Both the position numbers and the translations under genes were made by a program. The notes beneath the pieces were generated by a model that saw nothing but the letters and a program-made list of their open reading frames with translations, was not told where the DNA came from and searched no databases. DNA of 64,000 bases from contig JANLIR010000003.1 of NCBI GenBank assembly GCA_024654025.1, forward strand, positions 1,658-65,657, written 5' to 3'. Origin of the DNA: Candidatus Wolfebacteria bacterium (GTDB lineage Bacteria; Patescibacteriota; Minisyncoccia; UBA6257; UBA9933). Below are positions 44,261 through 44,404 of this stretch, in pieces; the first letter of the stretch is position 1; every line of letters starts with the position of its first letter.

Positions 44261-44404
44261 ATGCCCAGTATTACAACTTCGACGAATTCTCTATAAAATT
44301 TTTGAGTATTTTAGAATAAACAATACTAGGTAAAAATAAAAAACATTAATTAATAATCAATTTCGAGAATTAACCCAAAAATAATCGAAATTGTAATACT
44401 GGGT
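44261..44404 (+). mobile_element. MITE-like element R2 (copy of R1)
   Basis: same TIRs and internal sequence; between the rplX stop and the rplE ATG. Confidence 0.7.

Follow-up and report, generated by a model that had tools for sequence, protein, structure and literature searches.

The window analysed here, a stretch of 64,000 nucleotides (G+C 39.5%) from a Candidatus Wolfebacteria bacterium, carries an S10/spc-type ribosomal-protein operon in which the rplX and rplE genes, encoding L24 and L5, are separated by a palindromic element that we call R2. R2 is probably one copy of a family of small, non-autonomous and palindromic mobile elements resembling MITEs (miniature inverted-repeat transposable elements), here named family A, of a Wolfebacteria-like lineage of the Patescibacteria (Candidate Phyla Radiation, CPR), which inserted at the TATG holding the rplE start codon and now buries that start in a stem that would be opened by ribosomes on the upstream gene. 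The family is apparently undescribed, and its host is an uncultivated groundwater bacterium. An earlier note on this DNA had placed an element copy at the L24/L5 junction, with coordinates that proved right within 1-3 nt. The parts of the junction, all on the + strand, are as follows.

43951..44256, +: rplX (L24), with its TAA stop at 44254-44256, 3 nt before the left TATG (list of open reading frames (ORFs), tblastn, Pfam families of >90% identical homologs)
44260..44407, +: R2, the family-A copy between rplX and rplE (L24/L5), from TATG (44260-44263) to TATG (44404-44407)
44260..44263, +: left direct repeat TATG, relic of the original rplE start, opening an 11-codon mini-ORF (MPSITTSTNSL, then stop)
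44264..44282, +: left terminal inverted repeat CCCAGTATTACAACTTCGA
44284..44291, +: inner half-stem GAATTCTC, with predicted pairing to GAGAATT (44365-44371) or, alternatively, to GAGTATTT close by, and a compensating AATTCCC/GGGAATT change in L071
44358..44371, +: third, interior arm-core copy CAATTTCGAGAATT, which repeats the left arm in direct orientation and could form a local 9-bp hairpin with the right arm's inner half
44385..44403, +: right terminal inverted repeat TCGAAATTGTAATACTGGG, supplying rplE positions -20 to -2
44404..44407, +: right TATG with the working rplE start ATG (44405-44407), which lies buried at the stem base (tblastn, folds)
44405..44962, +: rplE (L5), with PF00281 and PF00673 in all homologs

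The two gene calls rest on homologs carrying PF17136 for L24 and PF00281/PF00673 for L5, and tblastn places the N-terminus of L5 exactly at the ATG 44405-44407 in all relatives. By its L5 homologs the organism falls within the Patescibacteria (CPR), near Candidatus Wolfebacteria.

Insertion at the rplE start and the family behind it

For comparison the operon genes were mapped in four relatives, L037, DBS2 (L015+L009), L040 and L041, with nucleotide identities to the window over the L3 to L5 genes of 92.8%, 91.3%, 86.1% and 76.6%, respectively, and the branching order (((window, L037), DBS2), L040), L041. The L24/L5 junction measures 148 nt in the window and 4 nt in the sister genome L037 (taaTTTTatg), where three independent assemblies carry the window sequence without the element and with one TATG fewer (empty site taaTTTTatgaag; precise empty-site sequence TAATTTTATG). 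By blastn, L037 10000-10003 maps to both window 44260-44263 and window 44404-44407, and TTTTATG in L037 compared with TTTTATG-(140 bp)-TATG in the window amounts to a target duplication against an empty site. In DBS2 the same junction is 151 nt long and holds a copy that is 86% identical; L040 has an 83-nt decayed copy with the left arm and core kept and the right arm lost (fold z = 0.13), L041 has 111 nt of a decayed sister-subfamily copy sharing the CCCAGTA/TAC.GGG ends but not the stems, and the junction is 28 nt in L102 and 3 nt in the more distant L100. L5 is intact in all relatives whatever the state of the junction, and therefore the hairpin is neither conserved nor required at L24/L5.

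The same 19-mer arm has six matches in the window, which are both arms of R2 and of two further copies in the operon, and 0 matches in 100 shuffles.

43183..43333, +: R1, family-A copy between rpmC and rpsQ (L29/S17), bounded by TATG...TATG
46964..47113, +: R3, family-A copy between rpsE and rplO (S5/L15), where rpmD (L30) would lie in other bacteria

Each of the three copies has 19-nt inverted repeats (CCCAGTATTACAACTTCGA and TCGAAGTTGTAATACTGGG) with 0-1 mismatch across the 19 nt, the inner half-stem (GAATTCTC/GAGAATT) and an interior arm-core copy CAAYTTCGA. They are mutually 91-92% identical, with conservation beginning exactly at TATG and stopping exactly at TATG. Family-A copies are 140-145 bp long (the R2 insert is ~144 bp) and a conserved ORF is absent, the relic mini-ORFs of 11-30 codons varying in frame and length between copies; a conserved small peptide from the left ATG was rejected on this ground and because L072 has ACG for ATG. 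R2 is thus small and noncoding, has terminal inverted repeats and a duplication against an empty site, and belongs to a set of dispersed copies with insertion polymorphism, which are the marks of a MITE. An integron attC site, an intron and a phage origin were also considered for R2 and dismissed (no R-box-like motif by eye, unfitting size and context, 0 matches in viral contigs).

Across the operon, junction lengths in the relatives are bimodal, being either tight (-26 to +20 nt) or filled with inserts of 34-195 nt. In the window 18/21 junctions are tight (-8 to +17 nt) and the remaining 3/21, of 148-150 nt, hold R1, R2 and R3. Filled junctions number 3/21 in the window, 7/21 in L037, 12/21 in DBS2, 13/21 in L040 and 8/13 covered by the contig in L041, and the filled set varies. 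R1, R2 and R3 are all present too in L085, an independent assembly of the same organism from Hainich groundwater with 99.8% identity to the window, and inserts in the window and this near-identical strain are 105-150 nt long. In the distant Wolfebacteria L100 and L101 the junctions are tight almost throughout. L085 differs from the window by an extra 105-nt hairpin at rplN/rplX (L14/L24; L085 5447-5550 vs window 43936-43949), next to a cluster of synonymous changes in the last 15 nt of rplN, which suggests import by homologous recombination.

Beyond the operon, exact-arm scans were made of genome, metagenome and viral collections, in which diverged arms would be missed. In all there are eight independent family-A sites, filled, empty or decayed depending on the relative, and they include the following.

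L092/L096: copy before ileS
L071: copy before lepB, in a divergent intergenic region beside pth
L090: copy before rplT
L072: copy before an NDT-like gene of 142 aa, from the same Hainich sample as the window
L097: copy truncated by the contig end, at the ATGA overlap of stop and start that follows a 754-aa ORF

The direct repeat is a clean 4 bp in the ribosomal-protein copies and in L071, and 3 bp or imperfect in L092, L090 and L072. The arm scan of genome contigs returned 36 loci, all single chance matches except two from JAJYNK010000039.1, and the arm pairs found were all 120-170 bp apart, none enclosing more than ~170 bp. Viral contigs gave 0 matches to the exact arms, and a covariance model built from nine copies and run over 192 kb returned no new full copies, only known copies, remnants of a subfamily A' and generic hairpins. 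The 265-kb L037 contig contains only two family-A copies, R1 (8849-9019) and R3 (12765-12935), which are 100% identical, including a nested 30-nt palindrome TCCCACACATATGATTATGTATGGGA; the window R2 is 98% identical to these two, though L037 is without R2. Such similarities point to copying or gene conversion and not to vertical descent.

Two observations belong to individual copies. In L090 (reverse orientation, 2010-2116) an A' hairpin (CCCGGTAGTGAA.../...CTACTACGGGG) lies directly upstream of the rplT family-A copy and appears to provide the final codons and the stop of rpmI (L35). The IleRS encoded behind the copy in L092 (2958-6485, - strand) has an inserted histidine-phosphatase (His_Phos_1) domain at residues 493-651.

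Translation from a buried start codon

The earlier note had stated that the rplE initiation region is supplied by the right inverted repeat of the element, that no Shine-Dalgarno (SD) sequence is recognisable within 15 nt of the ATG, and that the layout is the same for rpsQ behind R1 and rplO behind R3. All of this agrees with our analysis: ...AATACTGGGT precedes the rplE ATG, the 15 nt upstream read AATTGTAATACTGGGT, GGAG, GAGG and AGGA are all absent, and rpsQ and rplO are arranged in the same way. The absence itself therefore stands, but its informativeness does not, as a survey of the 74 window genes gave SD usage at a random level. SD cores (GGAG, GAGG or AGGA at -20..-4) occur before 8/74 genes (11%) vs 9.2% of random windows, and the mean anti-SD duplex energy is -0.68 kcal/mol upstream of genes, weaker than the -1.77 kcal/mol found at random positions. 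Positions -13..-4 of the window genes are 80-95% A/T, with T preferred at -1. SD-less initiation from A/U-rich and normally unstructured upstream regions is the norm in this genome, and because of that the missing SD at rplE is uninformative. TATAAT/TATAAA boxes merely 3-10 nt before the ATGs at window 7166, 9832, 11019 and 26756 suggest leaderless or very short-leader mRNAs at those genes.

The R2 junction RNA is predicted to fold into one long hairpin (-37.2 kcal/mol, z = -5.5), and family-A RNAs with their flanks fold with -37 to -46 kcal/mol. Apart from one C.A mismatch, the predicted stem of R2 is a regular helix with Watson-Crick pairing throughout. Over positions -9..+6 around the AUG, the mean probability of being unpaired, P(unpaired), is 0.04-0.15 at the element junctions vs 0.14-0.82 at ten genes of this operon with tight junctions, which supports the earlier proposal that rpsQ, rplE and rplO start in a structured, SD-less context made by the element.

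We propose the following course of events. The element probably entered the TATG that held the rplE start, and TATG now stands on both sides, the left one keeping the old ATG beside the rplX stop and the right one providing the working rplE start. In the operon mRNA the two 19-nt arms would form a stem of ~20 bp with the rplX stop opposite the rplE AUG at its base, so that the AUG is buried. The left arm would be occupied, and the AUG freed, by a ribosome that is completing rplX or is engaged on the 11-codon relic ORF beginning at the left ATG, whereupon the interior third repeat could hold the inner half of the right arm. L5 translation would in this manner stay dependent on upstream translation although the stop-to-start distance grew from 4 to 148 nt.

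When the footprint of a ribosome at the upstream stop was imposed in the folding, P(unpaired) at the AUG rose from 0.04-0.15 to 0.43-0.56, which is comparable with most tight-junction genes nearby, and under the footprint the interior repeat of R1 and of R3 takes up the inner part of the right arm. Termination-reinitiation coupling has been reported to be almost abolished by gaps of ~20 nt (PMC10666635), and with a linear gap of 148 nt the translation of L5 would therefore have to rely on opening of the stem. From the modelled footprints we infer that the rplX-terminating ribosome may unmask the rplE AUG.

The position of R2 had led the earlier note to connect it with the S8 feedback of the spc operon, which acts at the start of rplE in model bacteria, and to raise the question of a structural mimic of the S8-binding helix 21 (h21) of 16S rRNA inside the element. 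That R2 is such a mimic, with captured spc autoregulation, we regard as next to impossible. It does adjoin the rplE start, and the right arm contains AUACUGG, identical to the 3' strand of h21 at the S8 site of E. coli, but this stretch is fully Watson-Crick paired to CCAGUAU in a junction fold that is continuous save for the one C.A, and the irregular core with its 7-nt loop and unpaired A642 is missing. In the S8 site itself the helix is interrupted by a conserved 7-nt internal loop with the base triples A595.(A596-U644) and (G597-C643).U641 and the invariant A642 (PMC4176348). Moreover, the E. coli mRNA target, which overlaps the rplE start, is contained nearly entirely in the coding sequence of L5 and not in the region upstream, and S8 mRNA regulators are, in the words of the title of the same report, narrowly distributed to Gammaproteobacteria (PMC3616713). 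The same element also stands before the genes for S17, L15 and L20 and before ileS and lepB; the sister genome L037 has an empty junction, and conservation at the rplE start fails (4 nt in L037, 3 nt in L100, 28 nt in L102). The S8 reading is rejected on structure, position and lack of conservation, and R2 is not a ribosomal-protein feedback site. Nor does R2 belong to a known RNA family: Rfam gave nothing at the gathering threshold for R2, and nothing relevant at E<=10 over 43100-47200.

Alternatively the hairpin could be a processing site for RNase III or another nuclease acting on double-stranded RNA, comparable to the intercistronic sites of phage T7 or to Correia elements, whose cleavage would free the downstream messages with a short unstructured leader. 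A near-perfect stem of ~20 bp inside an operon and on the transcribed strand fits such a role, binding or cleavage by RNase III is reported for Correia elements (PMC2649163), and cleavage would relieve the sequestration of the AUG without coupling. Nevertheless we find it distinctly unlikely as the explanation of R2, given that stemless decayed copies are tolerated; it is compatible with the mobile-element explanation rather than exclusive of it.

Very little credence can be given to an outward promoter in the element giving rise to an rplE mRNA that is leaderless or has a short leader. In its favour, several window genes have TATAAT at 3-10 nt ahead of the ATG, so that leaderless starts could be frequent here, and TGTAATACT stands in the right arm 4-5 nt from the ATG. 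The promoter scan, however, placed no + strand site at a right end in any of the copies, its 15 hits in total were not above the 11.2 +/- 2.9 of the shuffles, a -35-like box is absent, and the operon is already transcribed through. The scans, which were not above shuffles and gave no + strand signal at the right end, led us to discard a terminator in the element as well.

Selfish insertion or selected module

Several observations weigh against the explanation of R2 as a mobile element with an unmasked start. No autonomous element or transposase with family-A ends was found, the exact-arm scans yielding only pairs of 120-170 bp, and there is no transposase among the scanned ORFs of the window. 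The copy number is low, with two copies on the 265-kb contig and both in the ribosomal-protein operon, and the duplication is not a clean 4 bp at L092, L090 and L072. All eight independent sites (8/8) have the same orientation with the right end exactly on the true ATG, for which a simple null gives p ~6e-4 for the abutment (0.39^8) and ~0.008 for the orientation; the abutment null was taken from the window, where 60 start codons with TATG or ATGA compare with 93 of these tetramers lying wholly between genes, both strands counted. Three of the eight sites have 40-150 nt of free upstream space, and a purely selfish element is not obviously predictive of start-codon abutment and fixed orientation. 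Orthologous copies are furthermore 86-94% identical vs 76-83% at third codon positions of the flanking genes, an excess of conservation that needs an explanation, which could be concerted evolution, re-invasion or transfer between co-resident populations, or constraint. Concerted evolution is demonstrably at work in family A, as R1 equals R3 in L037. The translation mechanism, finally, is a prediction from thermodynamic folding.

A rival reading is a mobile cis-regulatory module under selection, in which the sequestering stem and the alternative local hairpin form a translational switch and gene starts come under common control by, for example, ribosome flux, temperature, a protein or a ligand. 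In its favour are the fixed orientation and exact start-codon abutment at all eight sites and the whole-length conservation above synonymous sites. The alternative hairpin forms in folds with the left arm blocked, and 4/8 of the genes behind copies encode translation proteins (S17, L5, L15, L20), with IleRS as a fifth translation enzyme. The single covarying position in family A (C-G in R1, U-A in R2, R3 and L037, U.G in DBS2 R1) preserves the local interior/right-arm hairpin and breaks the long stem (C.A); this covariation may go back to one or two events among close copies. On the other hand, RNAalifold run on family A finds 0/29 pairs with a compensatory change and several uncompensated mismatches, which accumulate in the arms, the gene set also includes lepB and the NDT-like gene, and junctions of the same kinds also hold hairpins of unrelated families. 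Since L24/L5 is empty in the sister genome and an unstructured decayed spacer in L040, with L5 intact in both, and since Rfam has no match, we consider a selected switch rather unlikely. The new regulatory arrangement suggested in the earlier note is a possible but not the best reading of R2.

A broader version may be put forward as a tentative possibility, namely that family A, and perhaps the related families with CCC...GGG ends, form a start-codon-seeking mobile module of translational control that spreads in the ribosomal-protein operon and in housekeeping genes of CPR bacteria. The duplicated ATG, the long stem that ribosomes can open and the interior decoy repeat would then be selected features by which any gene start could become a translation-coupled, switchable and SD-less start.

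Other junction inserts belong to several hairpin families, among them a second superfamily with TCCC...GGGA ends and clean 4-bp duplications, which was found at these places.

L037 4696-4830 and 11793-11921
DBS2, at L16/L29, L6/L18 and adk/map
L041 5523-5628
L101 2712-2873
L015 84-238

The duplication is TGAA at ATGAA starts, an ATTAA-like target for a copy nested inside family A, and TTTA where a copy lies 8 nt upstream of greA. At L16/L29 the insertion splits an ATGA overlap, such that the left copy of the target keeps the TGA stop while the last A of the element and the right TG rebuild an ATG, and in DBS2 an insertion 5 nt into map leaves the Map protein one codon shorter. These signatures are those of ordinary cut-or-copy insertion, and they show that regeneration of the start codon follows from the end sequence and the target. 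The DBS2 adk/map case had raised the idea of an element carrying its own ATG, which is not needed, as a TGAA target in an ancestral GTG-AAA together with the terminal A yields the ATG, and the TTTA and ATTAA-like duplications in the same superfamily lie away from start codons.

CPR genomes are small and tightly packed, and S10/spc is the most conserved and most highly expressed bacterial gene block. In this lineage the inserts differ between ~90% identical species and even between 99.8% identical strains. Small mobile palindromes are thus active in CPR genomes, and essential genes tolerate a start codon buried in a 20-bp helix. The L24/L5 series of empty, filled and decayed junctions is a natural set for testing internal-cistron starts in SD-less bacteria. 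There are practical consequences as well: gene callers mis-start L5, S17 and L15 at the inserts, and screens based on operon synteny or ribosomal-protein leaders will flag the inserts as 'regulatory RNAs'. In public calls S17, L15 and L5 are extended upstream into elements or spacers with N-termini 17-42 codons too long, examples being L037 S17 (93 aa), L037 L15 (156 aa) and protein P0005 (L5, 227 aa).

The remaining features of the window are as follows. The operon runs on the + strand from L3 at 38595 to map at 50226, downstream of which lie a glycosyltransferase gene, greA and a class I lysS; the alpha operon is not there. The rpmD (L30) gene is absent between rpsE and rplO (46963-47110), where the junction is taken by R3, and S14 is the short form of 61 aa. 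Three tRNA genes on the - strand (17156-17239, 18593-18664 and 18671-18742) are the only Rfam matches in the window. A perfect, loopless 46-nt palindrome (23+23) lies intergenically after trmD at 9706-9751, and three elements of another inverted-repeat family, with arms ACCCCGC(A/C)CC.../...GG(T/G)GCGGGGT, lie at 35768-35911, 37704-37813 and 52195-52437. The last of these encloses an ORF-like remnant of ~210 nt with stops, and the family also fills L14/L24 in DBS2.

Comparison with known systems

The E. coli S8/spc mRNA operator shares with R2 its neighbourhood at the rplE start, but it is located in the L5 coding region and has the h21-mimicking 7-nt loop, whereas R2 lies upstream, is a regular helix and is missing from the sister genome (PMC3616713; PMC4176348). 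Closer in kind are the Correia elements (CREE/NEMIS) of Neisseria, which are noncoding elements of ~100-155 bp with terminal inverted repeats and a short target duplication, situated beside or between genes, co-transcribed into long hairpin RNAs and differing in presence between strains (PMC2649163; PMC2229807). They differ in duplicating TA, in having hundreds of copies in both orientations, and in their IHF (integration host factor) sites and promoter halves (PMC2649163; PMC2229807). Family A is low-copy, duplicates (T)ATG(A), has a single orientation, always ends on a start codon and has no sequence relation to CREE. R2 is not a Correia element, since it has the arms CCCAGTATTACAACTTCGA and a TATG duplication, not the 26-bp Correia inverted repeat and TA.

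ERIC (IRU) sequences are imperfect palindromes of ~127 bp in transcribed intergenic regions of operons that form hairpins in the mRNA. Family A likewise consists of imperfect palindromes forming mRNA hairpins in operons, but ERIC sequences occur in either orientation, are untied to start codons and show no relation in sequence or host. The Geobacter uraniireducens MITE Chunjie is, as cited in PMC10969869, a MITE inside an operon whose function is retained; it is a single operon case with another size, other inverted repeats and another duplication, and as cited there comes with no description of start-codon regeneration.

Two groups of elements without target duplication should also be considered. 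R2 has the hairpin shape of a doublet such as the inverted REP doublets of REPINs, which are associated with a single-copy RAYT (Y1 HUH) gene, but its direct repeat against the empty site argues against this relation. PATE elements derived from IS200/IS605 insert in a set orientation 3' of a fixed 4-5-nt target and have sub-terminal hairpins in place of long inverted repeats. Family A has a fixed orientation to the ATG (8/8), and local hairpins are predicted in R2 at ~20 nt (left) and ~10 nt (right) from its ends; in contrast to PATE, family A has a 19-nt inverted repeat, and the related TCCC...GGGA families duplicate targets other than ATG (TTTA, ATTAA-like).

With respect to the mechanism, unmasking of a sequestered start by upstream ribosomes is known from the MS2 coat/replicase pair and from E. 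coli infC-rpmI-rplT, where the downstream start is buried by pairing with upstream sequence and opened by ribosomes on the upstream cistron. The pairing partner in those cases is native coding sequence shaped by selection, whereas the arms of R2 would come from a mobile element and its opening is a proposal drawn from folding.

A literature search for MITEs in CPR/Patescibacteria or for MITEs linked to start codons gave nothing relevant. In structure and behaviour family A is a bacterial MITE, like Correia/CREE, ERIC and Chunjie, with no sequence relation to described families. What distinguishes it from them is the strict association with start codons, the fixed orientation, and the fact that several such families colonise the ribosomal-protein operon.

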